Below, piece by piece: positions 15,714 through 63,836 of a DNA stretch of 63,836 bases (the stretch's first letter is position 1; each line of letters starts with the position of its first letter). The notes beneath the pieces are model-generated. The model was not told the DNA's origin, did not search any database, and saw only the letters and a program-made list of their open reading frames with translations. The position numbers and the translations under genes were made by a program. The stretch is from Rotaria magnacalcarata (Eukaryota), in assembly GCA_965140935.1 (NCBI GenBank), contig CBCSLL010000228.1, forward strand, positions 14,084 to 77,919. Direction: 5' to 3'.

Positions 15714-16880
15714 TTATTTGTATTTAAATCCAAATGCAAATCCACTTGTAGTTAATATTGTACAAGGCGAATTGCGATCCATTAATTGAAATTGTTCACA
15801 ATTCGATGAGTGATTTGGATTCAATGAATCTTCATTATCGTAAAAACTTGAATGACGAAAGCAATGACAAATATTTATTTTTAATTTCATAAAAAGACGT
15901 TTCCATTCACGACGAAATTTTGAATCAAATAAAATATAAATATAAAAATTTATTGCGAATGATATTTGATATATTGAATGAAAATACTTTTCTAATAGAA
16001 GAATTAATTTTGTTTCAACTATTTTGTGTCCATATAGTAAACGCCATGTATGAATAGATGCATACGGGGCACATATTATTAAATATGATGTCGAAACAGC
16101 TAACAGTAATTTCGTCATTTTACGTGAAGCATTTCGACGTGTTATTTCACGAATTTTATTCAATTGAGAATGATTTCGAAAAAGAAATTCATGTGGACTT
16201 TGTTTCATTCGTCGTAAAGATATTAATATAATTGTATTCATTACTATGATCGAAATATACGGAATAAGAAACACAACAAAGCAATCCACTATATCCATTA
16301 ATTCATTTATCCAACGTAAATGTTTCAATGAAAAACATTGCCCATTAACAATACCGATAAGAAATGGTAAATATGAATAAATTAAACAAGCAATGAATAT
16401 TATGAATAAAGCTAAACATCGAGAACGATACCATGAAAGTACATGTGAAACACGAAATGGTTTTACAACAGCAAATAAACGTTGAGCTGTAAATGACACT
16501 GTATAATAGGCACTTATAAAATTACATACATATGTTAAATATAATGTTAATTGGCAAACTACTGGACGATGAAGGAGATTTATATAATTCGATACCCATA
16601 AACAAAATAAAACAAATAAATATATTGTATCCGAAATAGCCATATAAAAAAGAAATGGATACACGGACATATTCGAGCCCATGGATGCAATCGTCGTACG
16701 TAATGCTCGTTGACCAAAAACAATAATTGCAAAACCATTTCCAATGCATCCGATTAACACTAATAGTAACCAATAGATATGACGAAAGAAAAAATCCAAT
16801 AGAGTTATAGGTGATGGCAGTTCCGCCGTATCCAAACTACTATTTAAACTCGTCGATGTGATATTCTCTGCATCAATCAT
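15714..16880 (-). CDS. Intronless rhodopsin-like (class A) G-protein-coupled receptor, orphan; 388 aa
   Basis: This is a single uninterrupted 388-aa ORF with seven hydrophobic helices. The N-terminal ectodomain has N-glycosylation sites (NITS, NSS). The TM3 end reads 'SFTAQRLFAVV', an AQR variant of the D/ERY motif. TM7 reads 'AINFYIYILF', an NFxxY variant of NPxxY. It has a long basic third intracellular loop ('SLRRMKQSPHEF...RRNASRKMTK') and a cysteine-containing C-tail. Confidence 0.8.
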   Translation of the reverse strand: MIDAENITSTSLNSSLDTAELPSPITLLDFFFRHIYWLLLVLIGCIGNGFAIIVFGQRALRTTIASMGSNMSVYPFLFYMAISDTIYLFVLFCLWVSNYINLLHRPVVCQLTLYLTYVCNFISAYYTVSFTAQRLFAVVKPFRVSHVLSWYRSRCLALFIIFIACLIYSYLPFLIGIVNGQCFSLKHLRWINELMDIVDCFVVFLIPYISIIVMNTIILISLRRMKQSPHEFLFRNHSQLNKIREITRRNASRKMTKLLLAVSTSYLIICAPYASIHTWRLLYGHKIVETKLILLLEKYFHSIYQISFAINFYIYILFDSKFRREWKRLFMKLKINICHCFRHSSFYDNEDSLNPNHSSNCEQFQLMDRNSPCTILTTSGFAFGFKYK

Positions 16881-24251: not shown

Positions 24252-26646
24252 TTAGCTCTTTGACTTTTTTAAAAAACTATCGTCTAGTTGTAGAGTGATC
24301 TTATGCCAGGCATTATTCATAACGCCACGAACATTCCAAATTCCTAATGGAGTATCCGGTTGAGTATTTCCATGTATATCCATCGCGCGGCAAACAATAT
24401 CGAATGGTTTCGAAGGTATATCATTGACATTGATATGATACGTCCACAACGTCCATGACCACGCACGCATATAGGGCTGCGCAAGTTGTTCAAGTTCAGC
24501 TTGAAACCAAGTTTTGCTAGAATAAAAATTAGCCTGGAGTCATTTCAATCAGTCACATCGTATAAAAAACTAAATAGAATATTGAAGACACATATTATTC
24601 CTTTTATTGTCAACTTTTGACATAAGCGGAAATTAGTATTCACTCAACAACTAAAGCTTTTTTCATTTTTTCTTATTATATCGTATAAATTTAGAAATTT
24701 TATTTTCTACTTCAATGCAATTTTTCTTATTAACCCTAGAGAACGATTTTGAATGGGACATGATTTTATATTTGAGAACTTCTATTTATAAAGCTTCCTC
24801 GTTTTTTTGTTCATTGAACTTTCAGGAACTATAAACGTTTGAAATGCAATTTTTTTCTAGGCAATTCGGAAAACATATTATTGCCTAGAAATAATAAACT
24901 ACTGAATATAAACCTATTGCAAATCGAAATGGGACATATGAAAATGACCTGGAGACTGCAATTATCTAATGAAAACAAATCATTATATAAATTTATTTAT
25001 CATTCGAAAAACGTTCTTAACTCTCGCGTGTCTCCAAATCTTGTTGATTAAGTTCTTAGACTTTTACACCAAGTTTGTTAATCATCGAAAGAACCATTTC
25101 GAGTATGTTTTTATGCTCTATAATATATTTCTAGAACTAAAATGAATAAAAAGTTTTGTTTGCTGATTCATGAATTTTTGAAGTCAAAATAATGATTCGA
25201 ATTGCGTTTCAGCAAAAATACTTACCCATGATCAAGACTAATCTGTACGTTTTGTATTGCTCTTCCGCCCCCACCTAATGCATAGCCTTTAACTGTAAGT
25301 CGTTGATCTTTATCATTTGGTTGTACTGATAAAACTTTAATTTTATTTCCATCGTCATCCGACGATGGATAACAAATAGCAGATTGCACATTGGATTCTT
25401 GTAACGCAGGTACTCTATCAAAATCGGCTTGTTGTGGTTCTTTTATTGATGGTGGAAGAATTTTATAATCAGATGTTTGCCAATGGCTGTCGGCTTCTTT
25501 ATCGGAAACAATAATTCGATTCAACCATTTAACACTACGAGCTCCAACTGTACCCGGTACAATTACGCGTAGAGGATAACCATGATCACTCGAGAGTAAT
25601 TCGCCGTTCATTTCATATGCAAGTAACACATCTTCGCTGAGCGCTTTTTCCATTGGAATGGATGCACCATAACATCTTTAGATAATAGAAAAATAAAAAT
25701 ATTTACAATTTTGTTTAGAAAAAAAATCTTACCTTTGTGATGTATCACAATCGAGACCCCAAAATTGAACATGTTTTCCTTCTTTATCAAGACCAAATGA
25801 TTCCAAAAGATCACGTAATTTAATGCCGGTCCAACGAGCATTTCCAATCGCTCCAACGTACCATTGCGTACCTAGTGCTGCTCCTTGATGTTCATTATTC
25901 ATGGCAGCACGACGGTTTCCAGCGCATTGTACAGCTGAAGTTATTGTGTGTGATTTATATTTATCGACTAAATCATCATAGGAAAGTGAATGGCTGGATT
26001 TTTCATTGCGAATTTCTAATTTAAATTCATTAATATTAACAACTGGCACATGCATATGATTGCGTACATAGAATTTTTCAACAGGGGTTAAAAATGATGA
26101 AACAAGTAGATTAGGTTTTGTTTCAGCATTAAACGGTCGTTGCGATCGAATGAAAAAAGTTTCGTTGGCATTGACACGCTCTGGATCATATTGGAATAGA
26201 TCGAGAACTGTCTCTTGATGTTTTTCATTCGCTTCTCTTTCGCCTAGAAAAACAAAATCTTTTCAAGTTTTTTTTTGCCTCTTTTTCTAAATACCTTCTG
26301 GTAGATTTCCTATTCGATATTGTTCTAAGGTTTCATAGACATGATCAATTTGATGGATCGTAAATATTTTCCAACAAGATTCAAGAGCTTTACCAGCAGT
26401 TTTTAGTATTTGTTTGCCACCTGGATGATTTTCAACAAATGAACTTACATCGTATACACCATCCTTATAGGCAAGCCAATAACCTACAGAATAGAACCAT
26501 TGCATAGAATTCGTTTTGTACTGAAAAACAATTCGTTCAACTGTACATGGAATATTTAAAAAAATTTTTGTGTGCACCTTCTGATTTTCATATACCAGAA
26601 GTACATGAAAGAACTCGATGATTAAATACTTTTTATTTTGAGACAC
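24252..26646 (-). CDS. SUOX: Sulfite oxidase (cytochrome b5 heme domain + Moco oxidoreductase domain + dimerisation domain); multi-exon, blocks approx 26287-26646, 25729-26060, 25226-25653, 24252-24524
   Basis: Cyt-b5 block: 'YKDGVYDVSSFVENHPGGKQILKTAGKALESCWKIFTIHQ'. Moco-domain blocks: 'SAVQCAGNRRAAMNN...GAIGNARWTGIKLRDLLESFGLDKEGKHVQFWGLD' and 'EMNGELLSSDHGYPLRVIVPGTVGARSVKWLNRIIV'. C-terminal dimerisation block: 'KTWFQAELEQLAQPYMRAWSWTLWTYHINV...HGNTQPDTPLGIWNVRGVMNNAWH'. A GTAAGT donor lies at approx 25221-25226. The last intron is about 0.7 kb. The 5' (mitochondrial presequence) exon is not resolved. Confidence 0.8.
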
Positions 26647-30361: not shown

Positions 30362-33300
30362 ATGACTGATTCGAAAACTACCGGTGGTAAGCTGCATGAT
30401 GAATATGTTGTTCTTCTAAATATCGATGATGGTACTCTATTTAGTATACCGAATTCCTCCTTTCTACTATTTGCATGTTCTCGATCAGAACACAAATGTA
30501 ACTCGACTTGAAGTAGGTCCTAAAACTTTTGTTAAACAAGATCATGAAAAAGTTTTACTGGGACCTGAAGGCATGTTAATTATTCCGTATGTTTAATTAT
30601 TGTTTGTTTTTTCGCGAGATAAAATATGTTTTCGTTCATAGTCCACGTCATTATGCTGTTATTGATAATCCAGCAGTTCGAGATAAAGATGGTCAAGTTG
30701 TTATAGATGCTAATGGTCAAGTTAAATTATTGCATTCCGATGTTGATATTCGTTTTGCACAAGAACCATTTCCACTTTATCCTGGAGAAACTCTCAAACA
30801 AAATGTTACGCCATTGAAAGTTATTGAACCTAATTGCGCACTACGTCTTCGTACTGTTCTTGACTTCACCAATGATCACGGTGAACTAGTCCGAGCTGGG
30901 GATGAATTTCTTTTCCAGGGACCTGGTATGAAACCATAAGATTTTAGCGGATAAATAGAAAAATTTTTATGTTTTGATGTTTAGGCACTTATTTTCCACG
31001 TAAGGAAGTTAGCGTAGAAGAACAAATTAAAGCTGTTATTCTTAAGCCAAATGAAGCTGTTCGTTTACGTGCTAAGAAAGAAATGATAGATCGAAGTGGT
31101 GTAGAACGAGAAACCGGTGAAGAATGGCTTAATCGAACCGTCGGTTCATATTTACCATTAGCCTATGAAGAAGTTGTCTCGGTTGTCAAAGCCTATGTAC
31201 TTACTGATAAAGTACGATGTTGTGATTCTGTAAAGCATCCTTAATATCCTATTATATGCATATTTTGTTTTCAGAAAGCTCTTCATGTTCGTGCTTTACG
31301 TACGTTCACTGATTTATTCAAGCGTAAGCGTCTTCATGGTGAAGAATGGTTAGTCTATGCAAGTGATAGTGAAACCTATATTCCTGATGTTTACGAAGAA
31401 GTATGTTATCTTGTGTTTTCTTCGATGCAAAGAAAATATCCTTTTTTCTAGGTTGTTGGCGTTGTATCAGTGACAGTATTGAACTCTCGTCAATATTGTG
31501 TTATTGTGGATCCAGTTGATGCCGATGGTAAACTTCAACTTGGAAGAAAAAAACTAATTAAAGTACGAGAAAAATAATTGCATTTATCAAATATAAATAA
31601 TTATTTAACATTTTTCTATTTTTCAGGGTGAAAAAACATTCTTTCTTCAACCTGGTGAAAAATTAGCAAATGGTATTCAAGATGTTTACGTACTTGAAGA
31701 AGACGAAGGTCTTATTCTTCGTTGTACTGAGTCGTTTAAAGAAGACGAAGTAAGTTTGTGCTTTTGTTTATGGTTAATAGAAAATAACGACGATCTCTAT
31801 CAATAGAAAGTCTTACGAAACCCTGGTGATCGTTGGATGGTTCGCGGACCTAAAGATTATATACCGGCTGTTGAAGCCGACGTTGTACTTCGACGTAAAG
31901 CAATTCCATTGGATATTAACGAAGGAATCTATGTTCGTGATGTTAAAAGTGGTAAAGTTCGTGCCGTCATTGGCACAACATATCTGTTAACTGAAAATGA
32001 GGAACTTTGGGAGAAAGATTTGCCAGCACAAGTCGAACAATTACTTGTTTTAGATGCTCGACACTTCGAAGATAAATCAGGTACACCAGCTGCTATTCCA
32101 CCAAGAAATAAATCAAAAGTTGTTAGCTATCGCGTACCGCACAATGCTGCTGTACAAATTTATGACTTTAAATCTAAGAAGGCCCGCATTGTCTTTGGCC
32201 CTGAACTTGTTATTCTTGGCCCTGATGAACAATTTACAATTTTGAATTTATCCGGTGAAAAACCCAAAGTACCAAACAAAATTCGAGCAATCTGCCTTCT
32301 ATTGGGACCAGAATTCTCAAGTGATATTGTTACAATTGAATCAAGTGATCATGCTCGTCTTTCACTTAGACTTTCATACAATTGGCATTTTGAAGTAAGA
32401 ACCATTGAGGTCTTTTTCATTAAAAAGTAAACTGTTTTATGTCCAGGTCAGTGATCGTGAAGATAGCAAAGAAGTTGCGAAACTCTTTTCGGTTCCAGAT
32501 TTCGTTGGAGACTTTTGCAAGGCTGTTGCGGCGAAGATTCGTGGTGCCGTTGCTGGTATTTCATTTGATGATTTTCATAAGAATTCAGCAAAAATTATTC
32601 GTGCTTCTGTCTTTGGTCTTGATGAAAACAAACGAGTTAACAAACGTCTCGTATTTCCACAAAATAACTTGATTTTAACTTCGATCGATATTCAAAGTGT
32701 CGAGCCTGTCGATCAACGAACACGTGATGCACTTCAAAAGAGTGTTCAATTAGCTATTGAGGTAAGATCAGCGTAATTGACATCATTCATTTCAATGAAT
32801 TTTGTTTTGTTAGATTACAACAAATTCTCAAGAAGCTCAAGCAAAGTAAAAATCATTGATGAATTCAAATTGAATGTTCGCAATATTTCTCTTCATAGAC
32901 ATACGGCATCTCGTACAGAACAAGAAGCGAAAGGTCATTTAGAGAGACAGAAGATTGCTGATGAAGCTGAAGGTAAAAAAAAGAATTGATTAATACTTTT
33001 GTAAACAAAGATTTTCATACGTTTTGTTTTTGTTTGTAGCCGAAAAAGAACGTCGAAAACTATTACAACTACAAGCTGAATCATCAGCCGTTGAATCAAC
33101 TGGTCAAGCTAAAGCTGAAGCTCAATCACGAGCAGAAGCTGCTAAAATTGAGGGTTCAGCTGCTGTTGATCAAGGTAAATACTCTTGTCTAGATATGATT
33201 CTAGATTTCATCACATAGATATCTTTTATTTTAGCTAAACTTCGTGCCGAAGCAACAAAAATTGAATCCGATAGTGAACTTCAACGTTTAACACAAGCAC

Positions 33301-34557: not shown

Positions 34558-37500
34558 CTATTCATGTTCTTCGACATGATAATTGCTCGAAGTTGCAGTT
34601 GATGTACGAGGTTTTTGATTCATATTTCCGGTCATACCGCCTAGAAGACCTTGTCCGAATCCCATAAGATTGATTGGTGAACGGCCATCGGTAACCAACA
34701 TTGATTGAAGACCAAGTGCTTGTAAAAGTTTAACTTGTGTATCTGGACCAGACGTCGCAATAGCTTGTATGGTTGATGCACCAATCGCTTCAACTTGTAA
34801 TTTGAATTTATCGGTTTCAATTCTTGACATTTCAGCTTTTTTCGTGATTTCTAATTCATTTTGTTCACGTAAATATTTGATTTCAGCTTCGCGTGCTAAT
34901 TTCAAACGTTCTAATTCAGCCTCAGCTTCAATACGTGTCGCATCGGCTTTGAGACGAGCTAATCGAAAGAAAGAAAAAGAAAAAGTTTATTATTTAAACA
35001 CTTCGATTTTATTTTTACCTTGTTCAACGGCAGCTTTGCCTTCAATGAGAGCTGATTCAGCTCGACTTTGTGCTTCAGCTTTAGCGTGACCACTGACTTC
35101 AACAGCAGCTGATTCAGCTTGCAATTCAAGAAGTTGTCGTCGAACTTCCTCAGCTTCGGCTTCATCTTTTATGCGTTGGCGTTCGAGTAAACCTTTGGCT
35201 TCTTGTTCTCGACGTGAAGCTTCATGTTTAGCTGCAGCCTCTTGTGAATTTGTTGTAATCTAAGAAGCCAAAAAATTCATTGATACGGATGAAATCAATT
35301 ACATGTATCTTACTTCAATAGCCAATTGAACACTCTTCTGAAGTGCATCACGTGTTCGTTGATCAACAGGTTCGACACTTTGAATATCAATCGACGTAAT
35401 AACGAGATTATTTTGCGGGAAAACGAATTCATCTCGTACACGTTGATTCGAATCAAGACCAAATACAGCTGCACGAATAATATGAGCTGAATTCTTATGA
35501 AAATCATCGAATTGAGTTCCAGCAACAGCACCGCGAATACGCGATGCAATAGCTTTAGCTGCATCACCAACAAAATCGGGTACTGAAAAAAGTTTAGCAG
35601 CTTCTTTTTCGTCTTTAGTGTCGTTAACGTCGAAATGCCAATCTAAAGAAAAAATAGAGAGTTCAAAAAACATTTTCCTTTTTGAAATTTATCAATTTAC
35701 TGTAAGATAATTGAAGTGAAAGGCGAGCATGATCAGCTGTTTCAATAACAATAACATCGGTAAAGAAATCAGGACCAAGAAGTAAACAGAGTGATTGAAT
35801 TTGGTTCGCTTTTTTTGGCACAGAACCACTCAATGAAAGTAATGTAAAATGTTCTTCTGGGCCAAGCATAACAAGTTCAGGGCCAAAGATAATGCGTGCT
35901 TTTTTAGCCTTATAATCATAAATCTGTACAGCGGCATTGTGTGGCACGCGATACGCAACTAATTTCGATTTATCACGTTGAGTTGCGCTTGATTTTGCAC
36001 TTGCTTGCGTTGTCGTAGTTGCTTGCTGTTGAGCTTTATCTGCGCCTTGATTACGTGTTGGAACATTTCGTTCGGCTAGCGGATCACGAGAAAGTAACTC
36101 TTCAACTTGTTTAGGCAATTCTTTTTGCCAAAGTTCTTCATTTTGTGTGAGCATATAAGTTTCACCAACAACAGCTCGTACACGACCGGTTTTGATATCA
36201 CGAACATAGATACCTTCGTTTTCATCTAAAGGCATTGCTTTACGACGTGTAACAACTTCAACTTGTGTTGGAGGAATATATTCGCTATAGCGAGAAAAAA
36301 ATTAAAATTTTCAAACTAAAACTCAATGAATCGGTTTCTTACTTTGGCCCACGAATCATCCATCTGTCGCCGGGATTTCTTTCAACATGTGCTTGTTCAT
36401 CGGTAAATGCTTCGATACATTTAAGAATAACACCTTCATCTTCACCCAATATATACACATCTTGAATACCATTTTCAAGCGTCTCACCGGGTTGAAGAAA
36501 GAATGATTTTTCGCCAACAATAAGTTTCTATTAGAAACAAGAAATGATAACTTAGACAAAAATAATACTAGCACAAACCTTTTTTCCTAATTGCGGTTTT
36601 CCGTCTTCAACTGGATCAAGAACAACGCAATATTGTCGTGAGTTAAGTGTTATTACACCAACTACGGCCACTAACTGTTCATAAACATTGAGTGTATGAG
36701 TTTCAGTATCTTTGAGAGTTACAAGCCATTCTTCTCCATTCATACGATTTTTACCAAAATCATCCGTAAATGTTTTCAGAGCACGAAGATGTAATGCTTT
36801 TTTATCTGTTAATACATGAGCACTTTCGACCGACACAACAGTTTCCTAGATTATGGAAATAATAGTTAGGAGAAGAATTTTCAAACGTAATTTCCCTTAC
36901 ATAGGCAAGTGGTAGATAAGCACCGGTTTTTTTTATTAACCATTCTTCGCCGGTGACACGTCGTTGACCTGTTCGATCGATGATTTCTTTTTTAGCACAC
37001 AAGCGAATAGCTTGATTCGAGCTAATGACCGTGGCACGAATTTGTTCTTCTACGCTAACTTCTTTTCGTGGAATGTAAGTGCCTGGTCCTTCAAATAGCC
37101 ATTCGTCACCAGCACGACGCTGTTCTTTTGCTGTATCATCGTCGAAGTCGAGTACAGCCTTTAAGCGTAAAGCTGAATTAGCTGGTACGACTTTAAGTGG
37201 AGTAACTGGCTATCAAAGACTAGATTGTAAAAATGAAAAGTAATAATATAAATTTTTCTACCTGACGAAGAACTTCGCCTGGATAAAGTGGAAATGGTGA
37301 TTGATCAGTTTGTGCAAGACGAATATCCAAATCAGCATGAACAAGTTTAGCTTGGCCATTGGCATCGAATTGAACTTGTCCTTCGACATTGCGTATGACA
37401 GGCGATTCAACGACACAATAGTGACGTGGCCTAAATATTATTTTTATTTTTACTTTGTTGTTTTTCGAATTAATTTACGTACGGTACTGTAATCATTTTT

Positions 37501-44644: not shown

Positions 44645-47600
44645 TTAACTAGGAAGAGAAGAGATAAAACGATCATTTAGAATATCAAGTGTAGTTAATA
44701 TAATTCGTGGTATTGATGAAAAATATTTTAACCATATATCAATACATTCTTTTTGCATTTGAATACGTTGTTGTTTACCGATCTTTTTCAAATAATATGG
44801 TAATAGACTTAATGGTGAATTGGAATAGACGATGATTGATTGTGACCAATTGATTATTTCACTAAATGGCAGGATTACGAATTCATTGTCGTTTGTTGTT
44901 ATCACAGGTATACAACCATATTGTAATACTTCAAGAAAACGATACGAATATAAACGACGCCCACTTGGTACAAGACAAAAATAAGATTGACGAAGAAGTT
45001 CAGTATATTCGTGTTGATCATAGGAACTTGTATTATCAGTATATTTGATGATAATATCGTGATTATTGTTTAAATGACGGAAAAATGTACGATGATGTTG
45101 AACATCTTCATAGCTTTTACCTTTAAATGAAAGTAGAATTGTTCGGGTAGATGAAAATTTATTTGTGAGATTCGATGGATAATCAGAATGAAACAATGGA
45201 AATGTTACGTGTGATAAACAATTATAGTTAGCAGTAGTCAAACTAGTTAATGCCAGAATATGACGAGATGGTAATGTGAAATCTAGGGTACGTCGATACA
45301 GTGGCCATGTTCCTATAAGAGAATGGTGTAATTAATTTTCTGTTTCTTATTGAAAAATAAATTGTTCGGAAATGATATCATCAAAGCGGAATGTCCGCGA
45401 GAGATTAAAAATGTTGCTGCCGGTCTTAATTGCTCGTAGAAACCGTTAGGTGCTTACTAATGATGTGTTCGATACATTTTTATGACCATACAAAATACAA
45501 TATGGTGCAGGTGCGATAAGAACGACTTTTTGATCATAACAAATAGTTTACCGCCTGAGTCGATTCTGCGATAGTGCCTGTCAAATTGATTATTTGTTAA
45601 TCAAATGAAGAAACAATCGTCAATAATCAGGAGCATAGAGAAGGATACTTGCTGCGATACTCATAGGTTTGAATGCGCGGAAATTCGGTGTAAAAACAAT
45701 GTGAATAGAATGAAAGAATAGGCCATTTGAAAACGATCAAGTTTCATTTGAATAACTGATTTATTTGTTCATTTTTTATATGTGTTGACCTTTAGATTTA
45801 GTACTGTTGTAAGAAATTTGCACATTCATTTTCGAGATAAGAGCTTTCACAGAATTCGATGATCAAGTGAGATGAGATTAGCGGAAGGATAAAATCAGAA
45901 GAAGTCTAACAATAACTACTTGATATGATGTGTCGTGAATAAATTAAAATTTTTTTTCACCTGCAACTGTCATCGGTACGTGCAAAACTGAAGTCATTGT
46001 TGTGATGTTCATTGACTAATTTCGTGTGTATGTGACAGTATTCTCTCGACATGCCTTACGGACAAGTCACTCAATATGGAGATAGTATCACTGTTTATAC
46101 GTTTGAATAAACACGAAGTACATCTGAACATACAGCTCACAGTGGGATTCATTTCAATTGTTTGCGTTCGCATCCTTCATTATTCCGTTATCGTGTATGT
46201 CAACAAACACGTCGATTCTACGTGCAGGTGCAACACGAAAGAAATTCTTAGACATTGTACAAAAACAATAATTCTATTTGCTGAGAAAATTTCAAACTGT
46301 TTTTAATGATCTACTCAGTTAGTCTCGTGAGTCAGAGTATCGGTCAACAATGATATGTATCAATGTTTATTTGACAGTTTTGTCGACGAGGGATGACAGA
46401 AATGATGTATCTAAGGTGACACGTGCATACAGAGAAAAACAAATTTGTCTTTCTTAATATCGAATTACTCGGTTTGTATGAACACGTTCTTAATCTAACT
46501 AACGCATGTGAATAGGGTTGAAGAATGTGTACGAACTATAATTTATTTGAAGTCAATGCTTAATTATGGAACATTTTGCTCAGAAATAATAAGCCGAGTG
46601 AGCCATATGAGACGAAATATTTGATTTCTTTTCTAGTTGTTACTCTAGCCCATGCTACCGGACTGTTTTACTCATGAGGCACAAGCAAGTCAAGATTAAC
46701 TGCTTCCATACGTTGAATTGCATAGGTCAAAAATGTTATTTTGTTCAATAGATCATATCAACTGCTTCGAAGAAAAGAAAATAGCCATAAGTCAATTGTG
46801 ATCTAATAGGATAAGAAATAGATGTCAACCTTAGCATTTCTCTTCTCCTCGGTTAAATAAATACCAATCTATAAGTTGAAAAAAGTCTCTCTCTCTCTCT
46901 AATATTTAAATTTTCTTGAACAAATTATGTCTGATAGAGCTTTAGTTATTTACTGGTGGGGAAAGGACGTTACGATCTTAATCAAACAATAGATGATAAG
47001 AACCACGCACCGCCACTAATGTCTATTAAATAAATATTTAATGCGGAAATCTCGAGTGTCCACTTTCATCATTATTCACTTTGAATAAGTTACTTTCTAC
47101 TATAGGAAGTGCCATACAGAATCCATGATCTCATCATCCTGATTTTCATTTCCTCCAAGAAAAATCCGTTAGTCTCCCCATCAAAGAATTGGATTAGATA
47201 TTCTATTGTTTTTCTCTTCATATGAATTTGACGACATGATTTACGGCCATGTCCAATGATTTTCTCATTACAGTCTATGCAAATTGAAGGGAAATAAATG
47301 AACTACCTGTGTAATGATTGAATATCAAATGAATTTTATTCGGATCGGACCATTCACGAAAAAAATTCAAACGTTGTTCAATAAAATATGTATAATAACC
47401 ATTCTTCGATCGACGATCTCGATCGATAGTATCAACAGGTGCTATATGTATGCAAGCTGACGTTGAATCATTAGTATAATACGATGAAGTTCGAATTGTA
47501 TCGAGTATAGTTGTAAAAACAGGCGAACGTACGTATGATAGATTCGGATATTGAATATTTTCATCAATATGTATAGAAAATCGTGTAATATTATTTGGAC

Positions 47601-54200: not shown

Positions 54201-57200
54201 ATCATAATGATTTTTTTTTCTTTTACTGTTTCCTGCATACACGAGTACGATTTTGCACGGTCTCAGGAGACACATGAATAGTAAGCAAAGACGTGTTGTC
54301 GTCAGCATCTACCATCATCGCTAGGATGTTGAATGATTTGTTATGTTGATAATAACGCCATTGCCATCGCCATGTTTCTTCAGAGTGAAAAAAAAAGATA
54401 CATAGAAGTATGCATGCCTATGTAAGACCATTGTTTGTGCGCAATGTGTGTATCCGATCGAATAAGTCAGATTTGGTAAGAAGCTTTTCAAGGATTTTTC
54501 TTCTTTCTATTCTTTATATTGACTAAATAAAATAAAAATAAAAAATGTATCGATTAACTTTGTGAATAATTGTCATTCAGTTGTATGAGAAGAAAGAAAC
54601 AAAAGAAGAGAATTTCTTTTTCTTTTATATACCGTCCATTCAACCGAAAATAATCGTCATCGAAATACGACACTTATTTTCTTCATTCACTTTGAGAATT
54701 TTCTTTCTTTTTCTTTTTTTTTTGTATTTTAATTCTTATTTAGAAATCTTTTTTTGAGAATTTAATGCATTTACCTTGAAACGTAGAGTATGTAAAATAT
54801 GTCCCTGATAGTAAAGTTTAATCATTATCATGTGTTCTTATTATTATGTGATGTTGTCATGTTGATCTGCGAGAAACCTCTTCTTTTCTTTTTCATCTTA
54901 TCCTATATTCATTTTATTGTTCAAACACAAATACTTTGTCGTGTTATGATTTGTCTGGTTTATCTTATATTGACAATCTCAAGCATTGCTAAAAAGAAAA
55001 GAAAGCACAAGCGAATCAACACAAATGAGAACATAGATTTTTGTTGTTAATTTTTCTTTTATATTTATATGCGTGTTTGAAAAGAAAGAAATGTTTGTAT
55101 TTGCTAATTAATAAATGAAATCTTTCCGTTTCTTGGACAACCACGCACACATTTATAACAAATTTTCAGAAGTAGGCATAGGTTGCACTTGTAAATACAT
55201 AAGCATAGAAAGACCATCAATTTTAAATTCTTATTTGAAATGACAGAAGTAGCAGAAGAAGGAAGAAGAAGAGAATAATTAATGCGTACTACCGCTATTA
55301 CAACCTGATCATTCGACGTTCTCATTTTCTCTCTCTCTCTATGTTCTCACTCGTCAATCACTTTCTCTCGCTTGTGCAATCACACACACACACAATCATA
55401 ATAATATGTTCTCGCTACACAAGGCGCGCTTATGCGTTGTTCTTTGTTCTTTGTTCAAAATTTTCCTTCCCTCTTTTCCCTATGTTATTGCTGTCTTCTG
55501 ATCAATTCAAAGAAAAGAGAGAAATAGCAGAAGAAAAGAAATCTGTGTGCAAATTACTCAAATCTTCTATGAATGAACGCATAGAGGCGAAAAAGGGAAA
55601 AACTAGTTGTTTCTATACACTCTTCGTTTTCTCTTCTTTTTTCTCTCTTTCTGTCTCCCTTCTTGTTCATGGCTCTATTTATTCCAACTTGTATTGATTG
55701 TCTTGAGTTTTAGTTCTCAAAAAAAAAAAGAAAACAAACAATCAAATAGTATATTCACACAGGTAGAAATATATTTGTCAATCGACGCATCTCGTCCTTT
55801 TCTTGTAAAACATCATGTTATGTTTCGCTCTCTCTCTCTCTCTTTTCTTTAATATGCTCATTTATTACTTGCTACTCTCATTCGTATTTTCGAGAAGTCT
55901 ATTGTTATTCTGTTCAAATGATGAACAGTAAGAAGGAAGCCTTTTTTGTTCCATTCTTCTTTCTTTCTTTTTTCATGTCTCTATTACATGGGTACAATAA
56001 TTTTGTCTTTAGATCTGAAACCTTGTCAAACAAGTCGATTGTTGCTAGTGAATAACAATAATAATAATAATAATAAAGACATTGAACAGCAACATCAACA
56101 TTTGACCCGATTTGAACTAGACGGTCTACAAACATTATGTTCACTCTTGCGCAAATTAAAAGAAAAGTCGGTTCCGGAAGACCTTATTCAACCGCAGCAA
56201 CTATTGGAAACCATGGAGGTAAATTAAAACGAATTGAGCGATATTGGAAATTATACAAAATGATTCAACTATCAAAATCTCTCGTTGATATTGAAAATAA
56301 TTTTATTTAAAAAAATTTCATCAATGAAGTACAAAAAAAGAGACGAAAGTATTGCCAATGTCTATATATCTTATCAAAAGACATTTACACAAAAAAAGCC
56401 ATTTGACCTCTCATTCTTTTTATTTTATTTTTTTTTGAAGAAAACCTTGTATCATAACATAAATATACTCTTAATCTTTAATCTAGCGTCTTCTTATTGA
56501 TCATGCTTCTGATGATTCTCAATTATCAATAACTGGTCAACCGATAATTCATTACAACTATAATCACCAATATTCATTCGATACAACTAACAATCAAGTA
56601 AGCTAAAAACAACAAAATGACACAGGCACTTGTACATAAAGTCGGAGCTCTAAATAAACTATTACAAAAGTCATGTTGATTCAAATATTTTCCTTTTTTT
56701 TTCGTTTTTCTTATTCGCGTCATTTGTGACATAATTTCTATTTGATATATTTAAGAACGAAACGAAGACTTTTCAAGGCATCAAACGCAAAAATTCTGAC
56801 ACGAACAATATGCAACAATCATCGTATCACCACCTTCATCCATCTCACCAATACGATGCGCTATCAATGCAACAGCCAACGACCAATGTTGTTACATTAC
56901 GTCCATCAACAACTGTTCTATTGAGTGGACCATTAGCTAGTTCAGATTCATCAAATTATTATTCTCCCCCTCCACCGCCACCACCTCCTCAACAACAACA
57001 TTATATTAACAATTATAATCAATACACTCCAACACGATCACCAACCCAACAACATTATCCAGTAGATAAGAATTCAACTGCAAAAGATCGTCATAAACGT
57101 GTCCGGTAAATTTTATTTCCGGATTTTTTTGGTTTTCGTTGAATTCTTTCTTATCTTCTTTTGTCTTAGATGTAAACAATGTGAACCATGTTGTCGAGAT

Positions 57201-58071
57201 GATTGTTCTGAATGTGTACACTGTAAAGATATGCCAAAATTTGGTGGTGTCGGGAAAATGAAACAATGTTGTTTAACTAAACAATGTGTCGCGCCAATAT
57301 TACCTTCAACAGCAACATGTCAAGTTTGTTTGAAAAAGAAAGGTTCAAGAAAATTATCACAATTGAAACCCGAAGAAGTTCTTTACGAATGTGAACGTTG
57401 CATGGAAATTAATCATCTGCCATGTTTTCATGTCTGTTTCAAGTTATTCAAAATAGAAATCAAATAATTTTTATTTTTGTTTTAGAGTGCTCACTCGGAT
57501 GCATCTGCAAGTGAAGGTGTCTTTAGTGATGACATACCTGAAACATGGTTATGTCCAAAATGTATTACAGCTAATACACCTGAACCGCCTCTATACAAAT
57601 TACGACCAATTGTTCGACGAACATTGGTTACAAACAATAAGGGAAAAAACGGACTTATCGAATTACCATACTCTGATCCTTTGCAACAGCAACATCATAT
57701 TTTACAACAACAACAACAACAACAACTGCAGCAGCAACAGCAGCAGCAGCAGCAGCAACACCATTATCATATGTATGGAGCCAATATGAATACGAATTTA
57801 AATTATACAGATCCGTATGAAATAATGGAAAGCGAAGCAAAAAAAGTAAGTGAACATAATTAATAATGATTTTAGAAGTGTTTTCTTTTTTCTTTCGAAA
57901 TTTAAGCGTCGTCTTTATGCAAGCATGTACACAGCAAATGGGAATATTGATACACCTGGCATAGCAACCCATCCATCGTCAACAATGAATAATAATCTTG
58001 TTCCTCTTGATGATATTTCACAATCACTGAACGATTCGGATTTATATATACCACAAATGTTTGCTGTTTAA
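48241..58071 (+). CDS. Lysine-specific histone demethylase KDM2/JHDM1-like (JmjC + CXXC zinc finger + PHD finger); approx 13 exons. Resolved: 48241-48270, 49499-49649, 50145-50444, 50501-approx 50617, approx 50671-50745, approx 50790-51213; later blocks approx 52541-52608, approx 55990-56218, 56478-56600, approx 56750-57107, approx 57170-57445, 57486-57846, approx 57904-58071
   Basis: Exons 1-2: MHSNAQGRRL|RNRVKKNYVDDDNDDFFEE (GTAAGT donor at 48271). JmjC region: 'FNLSYVQRTGFPNPIVIKQHRGLGLRVPTSKFTVHDVRTCVGSQRLIDVVHVDTQQSSQMTMKSWTDYYDQPSEKRTRLLNVISLEFSHTKLE', 'YALMSVAKCFTDFHID', '[23 protein letters not shown]...[54 protein letters not shown]...WYVIERY'. All of these align with human KDM2A/B. 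CXXC: 'CKQCEPCCRDDCSECVHCKDMPKFGGVGKMKQCCLTKQCVAPILPSTATCQVC'. PHD-like: 'ETWLCPKC'. Downstream are a poly-Q tract (57700-57765) and a poly-N tract (approx 56055-56085). There is a stop at 58071 with no F-box/LRR found in the window. Confidence 0.8.
57700..57765 (+). repeat. Coding CAA/CAG trinucleotide repeat (poly-glutamine tract, approx 20 Q) within the KDM2-like gene
   Basis: 'CAACAACAACAACAACAACTGCAGCAGCAACAGCAGCAGCAGCAGCAGCAACAC' translates to QQQQQQQLQQQQQQQQQQHH. Confidence 0.85.
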
Positions 58072-59504: not shown

Positions 59505-62187
59505 TGCTGTGTATATGTTTGAATAAGATGCGAATATTAAAAAGAGTGTTTTGTAATGAAAGTACTGTGTTTATATACTCGAATGTTTAATGATAGCTAT
59601 ATAAAAACTAAGGGTCGAAGGTCTTTTTCTTTTTTGCTTCAGGCAGTTTCTTTATTGTCAAATAAATATATCATGATGTCAGATATTAAGAGTGAGAATA
59701 GTCTATACATATTTGGACTTGATACTTAAGGAGACAAAGATCTCTCATAAAGTATTGATAACGCATTTTGATAAACGAATCATGACCATGAAGAGAAAAA
59801 AATTAATTTTGTGCCGATGAGTAATACAAATCATAGGCAGAGTTCAACAATGTTGTGTTTTATTATTGCGATATTTAAATCAGTCGTGCAGAACAGCGTA
59901 GCTGTTTCTTTAGATAGTTTCATATATGATTCATTCAAGAAAATTACTTTAAGTTTGTAAATTAATCATCAAAAATTTAGATGTTAATATGCATATTAAA
60001 TGTTAAGATAACAAGTAATTTATCCATTAGAATATAACGATTTATATGTGAATTTTTAATCTAAACTATGTACTCATGTCGATATTGCAGAATATTATAA
60101 GGAGAAAAAAAAATAGTCATAAATATGTTATAGATTTTATTGAAAAGTATAAAAGCGAAAGTTATTCCTTGAATAAGGACATTGACACTATGAACTATAG
60201 CTGGCAGGTATGATTGAAAGAACATACTTACTGCCTAGCGGCATCTCTAAAGTGAAGAATTTTATTTGACACATAGAAACTAGCCACACGAATAGGTTCG
60301 TATTTTTAAATCATACGATCTGTTAGTACGCTTGTAAGCAAAGATCCATCGATCTAGCCAATCACGCGCCGTCATTCCTGTTATCATTAATTGAATTTAT
60401 AAGATGCGGTAACTTGCACTGAAATCACTATTTTTTAATGATAGTATCACAAAAACAACGTTCGATATGCCTACGTTAGTGCGAACAAACATATCACTAG
60501 GGAATATTACTGTCAACAATGGCAATACGGTCTATATTATTCTATAGGACTGTAATCGTTCATGTCTGATTCACAGGTTAATTTTTACTAGCACCAAATT
60601 CGCTTTGATTTTTCTATATAAAGAAAAAATGTCGAATATAAACGTACTTTTCAATCACAAATCGATTGACGTTAATGAGGCAAAGCGAATAAATTAGATA
60701 CACAATGCTGAAAACTAAAACTGGTATTCACAGTTTGATCTGCTTGAATAAGTTATGTCCATTTTTTACATTCAAAATATTCCCTGCCGTACTATTTTTC
60801 CTTTGTGCATTTTCTACTAAATCCTATTTCATTCCTACCATTTGAGAATGATGAAGCCATTGAAACCCTATAGCAGATGCCTCCTACACAATAATCAATA
60901 GGTTTGAAAATCCAATGTCTATCATTACAAGTATAGTGTTTATATCGAATGACGATGTTATATTTAGCATTTACATGGGTATGAATTTTTTCTATAAAGC
61001 GAAATTGAAGAATTCGAGGAAACAAAACAAAGCAAATATTTTGATTGATGTAACAAAGGAAATGTATCGGTGAGCTATTGATAAAGCAAAAGAACGATGT
61101 TGCAGAGTCTGCGTCTGCTAGCTATGAAATATTATCAAAGAGGAAAAACCTAGAGTCGTTTATATAAATAGCACGAGTTCCGATCTCCGAATATAGAATT
61201 AGTAGTCTGTAATCAGGCTCGAATACTAATTACATAATAATGCGAGTCATATGTTATTCACAAATCGCACATAATCACTTCAAACTTCTGTTCGATCTTG
61301 ATACTTATAAATCAAAGGGTTTTCTTTTTCTATTGTACTTTTTGTTTCATAGAAAGCCTGAAAAACAAAATTCACAAAAGAATTCAACCGTATTTTATTG
61401 TCGATTTGTATAGCATTTCCTGTAAGATGATCAGTATTGTTTTACTTCCGATTTTCTTTTTATAATGTCCCGTTGCCGACGTGTTACGATAGGATGCATG
61501 CATTGTTTGAAACAAAATTTCCACACACAAAAGTACTTTATTATGATAAAACATGCCGCTCTGTAAAGGGCACATTGTTACAGTAAAATAAATGCTGTCC
61601 TGTCCGAGTGGTCCTTTTGTCGGGGTATCGGCGATTATGCTGGCACCTGACAATCTCAGAACGATCTATAAATTTTGTTTTCGGTTGATTGATAATATAT
61701 ATATTCCTGAAGATTAACACATGGCACATTATTTCGAAGTCATTTATTCTCCAAAGCGACAATTGAAAGCTTTCTAGAAAAGCAAAACAGATCTATTTTA
61801 ATACTATCAGCACAAAAAAAAAGAAAAAGAAACAAAAGCCCACTATTGGTGAATCCAAAAATCCCGCCATTATACAAATGAATTGAAGCGAAGATATTCC
61901 GATAGTTTTTTTTCTCTATCATACTGTTTTTTTATGCTTCATCCCAAATATAGAAAGTGTGAATGGGAGAGGGAGCGAGAAAAAAGTCCAAAATCTATTT
62001 GTTATAGAGAAAATAGAACAACTTCAAGTGGAATTTATATCAAAGTTATTTCTATGTTTAATGTTATTCGACATATTTCTTTCCAACTAACAATTATTTT
62101 CTCTACTACTCAAACAAGCAAGGTACTAGTATTTGAATATCAACAAAAACCTTTAATTCGATGTTTTGAAATCTTCTAGAAATTATT

Positions 62188-62451
62188 ATGCGTGCAACAT
62201 TGATGAATAGTCTATTATGCTGTTTTTTCATGGTTCTTCTCGGTATAACATTTTTGTCGAGTGCATCAATTGAAAATAATGAACACTCTCTTGATGATAA
62301 GGACTACAACAGTTTTTATCCAGTGCATGCATTCGATGATCGTGCAGTTAAATCACGATTTTGGAAACGTGCTCCACGTCGTCATTTTTGGAAACGATCA
62401 GTGGTTGAGCCATCAATGCAAAATGATAATACGGCTAAACCTGTCTCTTAA
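62188..62451 (+). CDS. Putative small secreted prepropeptide (87 aa) with signal peptide and two dibasic-flanked R[S/H]FWKR motifs
   Basis: Single ORF 'MRATLMNSLLCCFFMVLLGITFLSSASIENNEHSLDDKDYNSFYPVHAFDDRAVKSRFWKRAPRRHFWKRSVVEPSMQNDNTAKPVS*'. It has a hydrophobic N-terminal signal (predicted cleavage approx after SSAS) and an acidic spacer. It then carries two copies of xRxFW followed by KR (prohormone-convertase-type sites), a layout typical of neuropeptide / antimicrobial peptide precursors. No homolog recognised. Confidence 0.35.
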   Translation: MRATLMNSLLCCFFMVLLGITFLSSASIENNEHSLDDKDYNSFYPVHAFDDRAVKSRFWKRAPRRHFWKRSVVEPSMQNDNTAKPVS

Positions 62452-62927
62452 CAGCTTCAACAACAGAATAAACATTGAACTATAGAAGAAAAAATAAATA
62501 AAACAGCACAAGTTCTTTTTGTCCTTTTTCTACTTTCTTCAATAGAGACTCACTGATGCAATACTTTATCATCGAAGACATTAGCCCATTCATTTTGAGT
62601 ATAATTGAATAAAAAATAAAAGTAAGAAGCACGAAAAAGAAATATGTATCCTTGTCATTAGCTATCGATAATGCAATCGAATCCACAGGGAGACAGTCAT
62701 TGTGCTTCTAATGAAGCTTTTAACTACCAATTGTTAAGAAGGACAATCATAGAAATATTCAATATAGGTAATAATTCATTTGAATCATTCTTTTATCTCT
62801 TTTTTTCACCAACATTTATTCATGCATGCACTCAATAAAAATTTACAACAATAGAAAAAGAGATTCAAGATTGTTCTGATTGTGTCAAAGAACATGTATT
62901 GATATGGTCGATCTTTCGTCTGGATTA

Positions 62928-63251
62928 TTAATATACTGAATTGGTTGATAATCTGAGTATTTGTTTAATACTTGAGGGTGTGTAATTTCTTGATTTAACA
63001 CGTCGAACTTTGGGATAGCCTAAATGACTATTAATTTGAGGTACCATTGCATTTCTTGCGCTTGGATTAGTACTTCGATATATTTTAGCGACACATTGAA
63101 TACATAACAATAATATAGATAACACAACTATGACCACGCCAATAATAAAAAGCCATTGATTTAAAGATTCTTCTGAATTTGGCCATTGAAAATTATCTGA
63201 AGGTAGTCGACTCATAGCTTTTAATTCTTTTTTAATTGACTTTTTATGCAA
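62928..63251 (-). CDS. Hypothetical small single-pass membrane protein (107 aa)
   Basis: ORF 'MHKKSIKKELKAMSRLPSDNFQWPNSEESLNQWLFIIGVVIVVLSILLLCIQCVAKIYRS...' with one clear TM helix (LFIIGVVIVVLSILLLCI). No recognisable family. It could be an exon of a larger gene. Confidence 0.2.
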   Translation of the reverse strand: MHKKSIKKELKAMSRLPSDNFQWPNSEESLNQWLFIIGVVIVVLSILLLCIQCVAKIYRSTNPSARNAMVPQINSHLGYPKVRRVKSRNYTPSSIKQILRLSTNSVY

Positions 63252-63540
63252 TAAGAAAGGAAATTGAAATGATTTTGAAAAAAAAACATGACATATAAAT
63301 TGATGTTGAATTTTTCTAACATTATGTAAATCATGTTAAATTCCATGTTCTTCTATTGATACATTCACTTCGATCTCTCGACATGGATTTCTTCCCGATA
63401 AAAAACAAAATTTGCAAGCCAAGTAGCCTATTGTAATAATTATTTTCTATAATCCCAGGTTATTATTACAGCGGAGACTTTTGTTGATATTAAAAAAATC
63501 CACTCCGTTTTTGATTATCATACGTCAGTATTGATTATTT

Positions 63541-63836
63541 GTGTACTCAAAAGTGAGTAAACTACTAAAGTCGGTCAGTGTGTCCAGCCGTCCGTTTATT
63601 CGATTGAGCTGAAATTTTGTGTACAGAATTATCTCATCAATATCTAGGTCGAGTTCGAAGATGAGAGGGATCCGTCAAGAAACGGCTGAGTTATCGAAAA
63701 AATTGTCATTTTTGATCAGACCATCCCTGAGGGAGAGTACAGGGATTTTTCAAAAATAAAAAAGCTTTTCTCAGAATTATCCACAACATATATAAATCGA
63801 CTCAGTTTTTAACGCTGATTCTGAATCTGATATTAG
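63541..63836 (-). repeat. Interspersed repeat, copy B (same family as 14985-15305, opposite orientation; truncated by window end)
   Basis: This is the reverse complement of copy A, as described for that feature. It runs to the last base of the window, so its full length is unknown. Confidence 0.8.

Follow-up and report, generated by a model that had tools for sequence, protein, structure and literature searches.

We describe a small gene of the bdelloid rotifer Rotaria magnacalcarata whose 87-residue product is probably a processed signaling-peptide precursor of the prohormone type, yielding two basic heptapeptides, AVKSRFW and APRRHFW (here called FW peptides); we hold this view with moderate confidence, deducing both processing and function from sequence. 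The gene lies in a 63,836-nucleotide stretch of contig CBCSLL010000228.1 (positions 14,084 to 77,919 of the forward strand), which was analyzed at full length and is referred to below as the window. It is an ATG-started open reading frame (ORF) on the plus strand at window positions 62188-62451, with a TAA stop inside the end coordinate, and it encodes the protein MRATLMNSLLCCFFMVLLGITFLSSASIENNEHSLDDKDYNSFYPVHAFDDRAVKSRFWKRAPRRHFWKRSVVEPSMQNDNTAKPVS. A preliminary description, made from the DNA letters, had reported an 87-aa ORF at this place and had read it as a secreted prepropeptide; its coordinates and sequence were correct. An R. magnacalcarata database entry labeled “unnamed protein product” matches the protein at 100% identity, and comparison with homologs of the protein indicates that the ORF represents a real, conserved, and previously undescribed gene family.

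Anatomy and predicted processing of the putative FW-peptide precursor

The precursor divides into the following parts, all on the plus strand.

62188-62265, plus strand: signal peptide, residues 1-26, recognized by hydropathy, with predicted cleavage after SSA26 (Ser at -3, Ala at -1)
62266-62340, plus strand: acidic pro-region, residues 27-51, net charge -6
62341-62343, plus strand: Arg52, predicted monobasic cleavage site N-terminal to peptide 1
62344-62364, plus strand: predicted peptide 1, AVKSRFW, average mass 893.0 Da, free-acid C-terminus
62365-62370, plus strand: Lys60-Arg61, first predicted dibasic processing site
62371-62391, plus strand: predicted peptide 2, APRRHFW, average mass 969.1 Da, free-acid C-terminus
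62392-62397, plus strand: Lys69-Arg70, second predicted dibasic processing site
62398-62451, plus strand: variable C-terminal tail, residues 71-87, and TAA stop

Both the signal peptide and the acidic pro-region of the preliminary description are borne out. At the N-terminus, the basic residue R2 is followed by a hydrophobic stretch of 16 residues that reaches up to 3.1 in a 9-residue Kyte-Doolittle window, and then by a small-residue SSA-S site, the cleavage position being a rule-based prediction. Homologs keep the signal peptide, and N7 and C12 within it vary little or not at all. An AlphaFold model built with the family alignment shows the signal peptide as a helix that is the sole confident part of the protein (predicted local distance difference test [pLDDT], 82 to 94); the remainder has a pLDDT of 47 to 61, and the predicted template modeling score is 0.28. 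Pfam searches with the ORF and two homologs gave sub-threshold noise only, and 99 of 112 sequences have no Cys after the signal peptide. Because AlphaFold confidence is low past the signal helix and Cys is mostly lacking, a folded secreted protein is an unlikely product of this gene.

Two nine-residue units make up most of the core, AVKSRFWKR (residues 53-61, nucleotides 62344-62370) and APRRHFWKR (residues 62-70, nucleotides 62371-62397). The string FWKR occurs twice in the six-frame translation of the 63.8-kb window, both times within this ORF. The units had been described as near-identical motifs, each followed by a dibasic site. The dibasic sites hold up, with KR after both peptides in all 111 family sequences, but the two motifs share only five of nine residues (A, F, W, K, and R), so that “near-identical” overstates the likeness. 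The lack of a Gly for amidation is likewise confirmed across the family (Gly follows Trp in 0/111 sequences, at either site), and the peptides would for that reason have free-acid C-termini. Contrary to what had been suggested, this lack is not unusual, since rotifer orcokinins, which occur in the same species and end in ...NDFF before KK or KR, are also non-amidated.

We propose that the signal peptide would route the 87-aa precursor into the secretory pathway, where subtilisin-like prohormone convertases of the PC1/3 or PC2 type would cut after Arg52, Lys60-Arg61, and Lys69-Arg70, and a carboxypeptidase E-like enzyme would remove the basic residues. The products would be the two heptapeptides, with the acidic pro-region and the variable tail serving as spacers. 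The peptides would most likely act as intercellular signals (neuropeptides or peptide hormones) through one or more receptors. Transcription, splicing, each processing step, the secretion route, the cell type, the receptor, and the function of the FW peptides are what we infer from the features set out here.

The choice of convertase follows from the cleavage site. The canonical furin site is R-x-K/R-R, and by known convertase specificity FWKR is a KR dibasic site of the PC1/3 or PC2 type; the site F-W-K-R has no Arg at P4 and thus reads as a KR dibasic convertase site, not as a canonical furin site. In the bdelloid Adineta vaga, PCSK1, PCSK2, and furin2 are each present in four copies (preprint 10.1101/802215), which indicates that bdelloids encode the required processing machinery.

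Conservation, selection, and distribution of the FW-peptide family

A single-sequence search returned 12 homologs of the 87-aa ORF. A full-length profile search of 5.8 billion proteins (E<=10) returned 85 clusters, and a filter-free HMMER profile scan of 1.84 billion cluster representatives gave 9 matches, all of which belong to the FW-peptide family. The named members are all bdelloid (R. magnacalcarata, R. socialis, R. sordida, Adineta vaga, A. steineri, A. ricciae, and Didymodactylos carnosus, the last an early-branching bdelloid), and the others come from metagenome or read-archive assemblies. Database labels for the family are limited to “unnamed” or “hypothetical.” Full-length profile searches found no named member outside the bdelloids, although motif-only relatives in monogononts could escape these. 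As far as detectable, the family appears to be restricted to bdelloid rotifers.

Most species have two paralog types, one with RHFW as the second motif and the other with RKFW or RRFW, as expected for degenerate tetraploids. There are one or two FW paralogs per species, one gene per subgenome, and no lineage-specific expansion. The paralog of R. magnacalcarata (P0041/P0105) is located elsewhere in the genome, and tblastn found no second copy of the FW gene within the window. The strings SRFWKR, HFWKR, and RFWKRAP did not occur in the searchable literature, and FWKR is absent from all rotifer neuropeptide lists of the NP-HMMer preprint (10.1101/2024.07.20.604414). A mollusc-centered survey that included Rotaria transcriptomes mentions rotifers only alongside molluscan families such as FMRFamide, RYamide, and FCAP.

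Conservation was counted over 111 family sequences, with column entropies taken from the family alignment. Arg52 is present in all of them, and His stands at P6 relative to Arg52 in 106. Peptide 1 ends in SRFW without exception; it is 7 residues long in 109/111 sequences, and the family consensus AAKSRFW is found in 87. Peptide 2 is always 7 residues long and ends in FW in 110/111 sequences; P63 and R65 hardly change, variation occurs at positions 64 and 66, and the family consensus is xPxR(K/H/R)FW. Ser directly follows the second KR in 106/111 sequences, and the tail behind it is between 5 and 30 aa long. R52, SRFW, the first KR, F67, and the second KR have an entropy of 0 bits, whereas the pro-region averages 1.64 bits and the tail 2.15 bits. 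The ortholog comparison called for in the preliminary description therefore came out in its favor: in orthologs throughout Bdelloidea, no part of the protein is better conserved than the RxFW cores with the two dibasic sites. In both heptapeptides the residues that vary lie toward the N-terminus and those that are fixed lie toward the C-terminus, a pattern known from receptor-constrained neuropeptides and also shown by the AstA, FMRFa, and orcokinin peptides of bdelloids.

The ratio of nonsynonymous to synonymous differences per site (pN/pS), calculated by the Nei-Gojobori method for nine orthologous coding sequences and summed over 36 pairs, differs by region. It is lowest in the core (residues 52-70), at 0.19, compared with 0.42 for the pro-region, 0.46 for the signal peptide, and 0.76 for the tail. 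Of the 10 degenerate motif codons, nine have synonymous variants, and none has a replacement. The SRFW codons vary only synonymously, and the first KR shows AAA/AAG and CGT/CGC variants. At the most distant loci, blastn aligns only nucleotides 62312-62408, the core. The region-specific pN/pS and the synonymous-only changes in the motifs show that selection acts at the protein level on the peptide cores and on the basic residues beside them; by these measures selection targets neither the DNA itself nor overall composition.

Such constraint bears on whether the ORF is a gene at all. The window has a GC content of about 32% and many short spurious ORFs, and some database models of family members are N-terminally extended (117 to 162 aa), as might be seen if the ORF had arisen by chance in AT-rich intergenic sequence or belonged to a larger gene as one of its exons. 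Against these readings, pN/pS is below 1 with region-specific constraint, and stand-alone models of 78 to 98 aa exist in seven species, among them R. socialis, R. sordida, A. vaga, A. steineri, A. ricciae, and D. carnosus. The extended models differ only upstream of the signal peptide, and one of them (P0007) reads the 5′ region in another frame. We regard the chance-ORF and larger-gene readings as effectively refuted, in agreement with the preliminary description, which had made its case conditional on the ORF not being part of an unrelated larger gene.

The charge distribution raises a different possibility, that the gene encodes a host-defense (antimicrobial) precursor. This option, also named in the preliminary description, is the main rival to our reading, but we consider it unlikely. 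The whole cationic segment AVKSRFWKRAPRRHFWKR, or a trimmed form of it, would be active on microbial membranes; the acidic pro-region would neutralize the segment until removed, and the KR pairs would be part of the active peptide. A pro-region of net charge -6 precedes an 18-residue core (residues 53-70) of net charge +8 with two Trp and two Phe, so that the anionic-plus-cationic layout is present, and the signal peptide, small size, lack of Cys, and lack of a predicted fold also agree. Arg/Trp-rich antimicrobial peptides, such as those of the indolicidin or tritrpticin type, resemble the FW core in composition, and Hydra arminin-type precursors have an anionic/cationic layout. Like the FW precursor, Arg/Trp-rich antimicrobial precursors with anionic propieces place an anionic pro-region before a cationic Trp/Phe segment.

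Effector antimicrobial peptides, however, usually diversify, and the cationic core of the FW precursor is the part that evolves slowest and is under the strongest purifying selection, with the pN/pS of 0.19 given above and ten residues invariant across three bdelloid families at saturated synonymous divergence (dS). This conservation is specific to position and goes beyond composition: R52, the exact 7+2+7+2 spacing, the C-terminal FW, and the Ser after the second KR are all kept, which points to site-specific proteolysis and receptor-type recognition. The core thus lacks the fast evolution of host-defense effectors, and the family has one gene per subgenome and no lineage-specific expansion. 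On balance, the sequence evidence favors a neuropeptide over a host-defense peptide.

Quite unlikely, in our estimation, is a third reading, in which a small secreted protein, intrinsically disordered, would stay uncut and use its basic/aromatic cluster to bind, for example, a polyanionic matrix, mucus, eggshell, or membrane. The lack of a predicted fold agrees with it, as does the constraint on the pro-region (pN/pS of 0.42, with N30, D39, P45, H47, and a Trp conserved), which is unexpected in a pure spacer. Moderate pro-region conservation is nevertheless common in true prohormones, where it serves sorting or processing. The invariant KR pairs, the invariant upstream Arg, and the fixed 7-residue spacing are a signature of convertase sites, and the tail varies freely and tolerates truncation.

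The window copy itself has two losses. Relative to all other homologs, a deletion has removed three residues from its pro-region, one of them a Trp that over 90% of the family retain, and its TAA stop corresponds to AAA (Lys) in R. socialis and a close relative, so that the last 9 tail residues are lost; the sequence past the TAA can still be aligned in frame. Both losses lie outside the peptide core, which is intact, and this fits the proposal that the pro-region and tail serve as spacers.

Comparison with known peptide precursors

The closest likeness in layout is to the bdelloid Wamide/allatostatin-B precursor (A. ricciae Aric9711, 10.1101/2024.07.20.604414), which is also small, with a signal peptide and a short acidic spacer. 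Like the FW precursor, it contains two tandem Trp-terminated peptides, each with KR directly behind it, ahead of a Ser and a variable tail. Unlike the FW 7-mers, the Wamide peptides are 5-mers that precede a Gly and are thus amidated, and the first Wamide peptide is freed at a KR pair, whereas the first FW peptide would be freed at a single Arg. There is no detectable sequence homology between the two precursors, and the C-terminal Trp-Gly of Wamides is absent from FW peptides.

Rotifer orcokinins (R. socialis Rsoc26551/29739; A. ricciae Aric20607/22421) resemble FW peptides in being multi-copy and non-amidated, with aromatic ends before the basic pair. Their precursors also occur as paralog pairs, consistent with bdelloid tetraploidy. 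They differ in that orcokinins are acidic 11-mers in 8 to 10 copies and are pan-protostome, whereas FW peptides are basic 7-mers in two copies without detected relatives outside bdelloids. FMRFamide-like/RFamide precursors share with the FW precursor a short basic peptide that has an Arg-Phe core close to its C-terminal end and basic cleavage sites on its flanks. The RF-Gly signal of RFamides is absent from FW, in which site 1 reads R-F-W-KR and site 2 R-x-F-W-KR; Trp follows Phe in 221 of 222 motif copies, and F-G-KR occurs only in P0016 (1/111). Beyond the Arg-Phe dipeptide, FW and bdelloid FMRFa precursors have no sequence homology. A resemblance of RHFW to the melanocortin core HFRW was considered and dropped, as the residue order differs and there is no homology.

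These comparisons make it very unlikely that FW peptides are a strongly diverged form of a known bilaterian family, either Wamide (MIP/allatostatin-B) without its amidation Gly or RFamide with a Gly-to-Trp change (GGG to TGG). Such an origin would account for the shared layout of the A. ricciae Wamide precursor, in which an acidic spacer is followed by KR-LSSQWG-KR-LQTIWG-KR-S..., and P0016, with ...RKFG-KR at site 2, suggests that the W and G states are interconvertible. A comparison of the family profile with the A. ricciae Wamide precursor by hhalign gave a probability of 1.7%, however, and FW and Wamide genes coexist in A. ricciae and D. carnosus, so that the two are not orthologs. The absence of Gly after Trp throughout the family and the confinement of the matches among the 1.84 billion representatives to bdelloids also count against common descent.

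P0016, a 127-kb ENA metagenome contig, is the sole member with the second motif ...VPYRKFG-KR, and it has RR, not a single R, before peptide 1. If processed, its second peptide would be an amidated RKF-amide. We speculate, at long odds, that FW peptides are a bdelloid-only form of signaling that arose from an RF-Gly (RFamide-type) precursor through the same Gly-to-Trp change in both copies. In this highly improbable scenario the C-terminal indole would have taken over the receptor-recognition role of the amide, and the FG-KR of P0016 would be a reversion or a relic. If true, it would be a traceable neuropeptide-family switch of C-terminal chemistry, presumably with co-evolution of an RFamide-type receptor.

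The interpretation that we prefer, a prohormone-type precursor of two heptapeptides, has behind it the general features of peptide prohormones: a signal peptide, short peptides flanked by basic residues, constraint focused on the core, no globular domain, and the presence of processing enzymes. The architecture proposed in the preliminary description is thus supported as far as sequence goes, through the invariant basic sites, the fixed 7-residue spacing, and the absence of a Pfam domain or fold.

Several points weigh against this interpretation. The protein has no detectable kinship to known neuropeptide families, and its assignment is by architecture alone. An acidic propiece with an Arg/Trp-rich core of charge +8 fits a host-defense peptide equally well. 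The window copy could be under relaxed constraint, given its Trp deletion, the nonsense codon in its tail, and a frameshifted neighboring gene (described below), though its core is intact. Finally, the homolog contigs retrieved from NCBI, ENA, and Logan (P0002, P0009, P0012, P0042, P0078, and P0031) are all genomic or metagenomic, as judged from the inclusion of neighboring genes or the retention of the putative intron. Multi-copy prohormones with non-amidated peptides are well known, and the FW gene most likely encodes a lineage-specific prohormone and is not a new kind of system.

Gene structure, genomic context, and significance

DNA identities were determined by region between the window and two more distant Rotaria-type loci, R. 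sordida and lgnP4. The regions and conserved elements of the transcription unit are as follows.

Intergenic DNA: 53-57% identity
61877-62122, plus strand: putative non-coding exon 1 (5′ untranslated region [UTR] and/or core promoter), left edge approximate, 67-73% identity
62123-62179, plus strand: putative 57-nt 5′-UTR intron, GTACTA...TTCTAG, ending 8 nt before the ATG, 47-49% identity inside
Signal-peptide DNA: 79-84% identity
Pro-region DNA: 71-72% identity
Peptide-core DNA: 90-91% identity
Tail DNA: 59-67% identity
62452-62640, plus strand: putative 3′ UTR of about 190 nt, 76-78% identity, above the pro-region and tail
62549-62562, plus strand: conserved linear 3′-UTR element CTCACTGATGCAAT
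62576-62584, plus strand: linear 3′-UTR motif AGACATTAG, invariant in 8 aligned loci, including distant paralogs

From these data we infer a layout of a non-coding exon 1, a short 5′-UTR intron, a single coding exon, and a 3′ UTR of about 190 nt. The identity of putative exon 1 (67-73%) compares with 47-57% in the adjoining intron and intergenic DNA. The GT and AG of the putative intron are invariant in 5 aligned Rotaria-type loci, and 10 of 12 loci, the distant RKFW-type paralog locus L016 among them, have a GT..YAG unit of 52 to 76 nt whose end falls 5 to 10 nt short of the ATG; this pattern is permissive in AT-rich DNA, and the intron call is to be read with that in mind. AATAAA signals lie at 62608-62620 in the window, and AATAAA occurs 125 to 190 nt past the stop in most of the 12 loci.

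Within the 3′ UTR, AGACATTAG is preceded by TGC(A/G)AT in loci among L001-L017 and is a candidate binding site for an RNA-binding protein or a microRNA. RNAalifold predicted no consensus pairs around it in the 8 aligned loci, and Rfam gave no match in window positions 60000-63836.

The R. socialis annotation gives the ortholog one coding exon and a product of 98 aa. The gene sits between a CXXC/PHD/JmjC gene and a small opposite-strand gene, neighbors that match those in the window. This conserved synteny, together with the 5′ and 3′ non-coding architecture, argues for a maintained transcription unit. On the upstream side, the window has the CXXC zinc finger of a KDM2-like gene at 57099-57467 (plus strand), which is syntenic with the R. 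socialis locus.

Two non-coding blocks flank the gene. The first, at 61273-61418, about 0.9 kb upstream of the ATG, is 72 to 74% identical to R. sordida and lgnP4 (81% by blastn over the R. sordida match), with flanks at background and no Rfam match; it could be an enhancer or an additional upstream exon. The second, at 62641-62855 between the convergent genes, has 77 to 80% identity to the same loci, above that of most of the FW coding sequence, and holds an invariant TTTATT (AATAAA on the minus strand) near 62816. It may be the 3′ UTR of the convergent neighbor or a shared regulatory region. A coding role for this block (55-aa ORF, 62671-62838) was rejected on account of 2-nt indels in orthologs.

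The convergent neighbor, at 62885-63251 on the minus strand, is a small gene for a single-pass membrane protein without a Pfam family above threshold. It is also found at Rotaria loci and at the more distant loci L012, L017, and probably L007, so that the FW gene and the membrane-protein gene are anciently linked. Compared with R. socialis and L005, the window copy of the neighbor has one inserted nucleotide near 62975, which frameshifts its last approximately 30 residues, and the displaced C-terminus survives as the ORF 62885-63001. The frameshift could be a genuine lesion or an assembly error in a CCC run.

Elsewhere in the window, an uninterrupted 388-aa ORF at 15714-16880 (minus strand), about 45 kb from the FW gene, encodes a rhodopsin-family G-protein-coupled receptor (7tm_1, E=5.5e-14, with a weaker Srw-like match); nothing in the present evidence links it to FW peptides. 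Several exons at 6072-8365 (minus strand) belong to a peptidase M2 gene of the angiotensin-converting-enzyme type, with the zinc motif HEMGH (Peptidase_M2, E=8e-60). Major vault protein is represented by two diverged paralogs, at 31837-32776 (plus strand) and 35299-36235 (minus strand), which have Vault_3, Vault_4, and MVP_shoulder domains and lie inverted about 2.5 kb apart. An exon of a sulfite-oxidase-type molybdopterin oxidoreductase lies at 25222-25653 (minus strand), and an exon of an exostosin GT47 glycosyltransferase lies at 44645-45241 (minus strand).

Peptide signaling in rotifers is almost unexplored. By the account of the NP-HMMer preprint (10.1101/2024.07.20.604414), only an AKH-like precursor had been reported in rotifers before 2024, and the survey in that preprint recovered only families with arthropod relatives. 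Scanning for conserved cleavage sites can recover peptide genes of the kind that homology pipelines leave as “unnamed protein product.” The FW family offers concrete synthetic peptides, AAKSRFW/AVKSRFW and APHRKFW/APRRHFW, for work on receptors and behavior; in Adineta the predicted free-acid forms are AAKSRFW (865.0 Da) and APHRKFW (941.1 Da). A lineage-restricted two-peptide precursor, kept in all sampled bdelloid families, would add a taxon-specific ligand in an animal group that is studied for its asexuality and desiccation tolerance.

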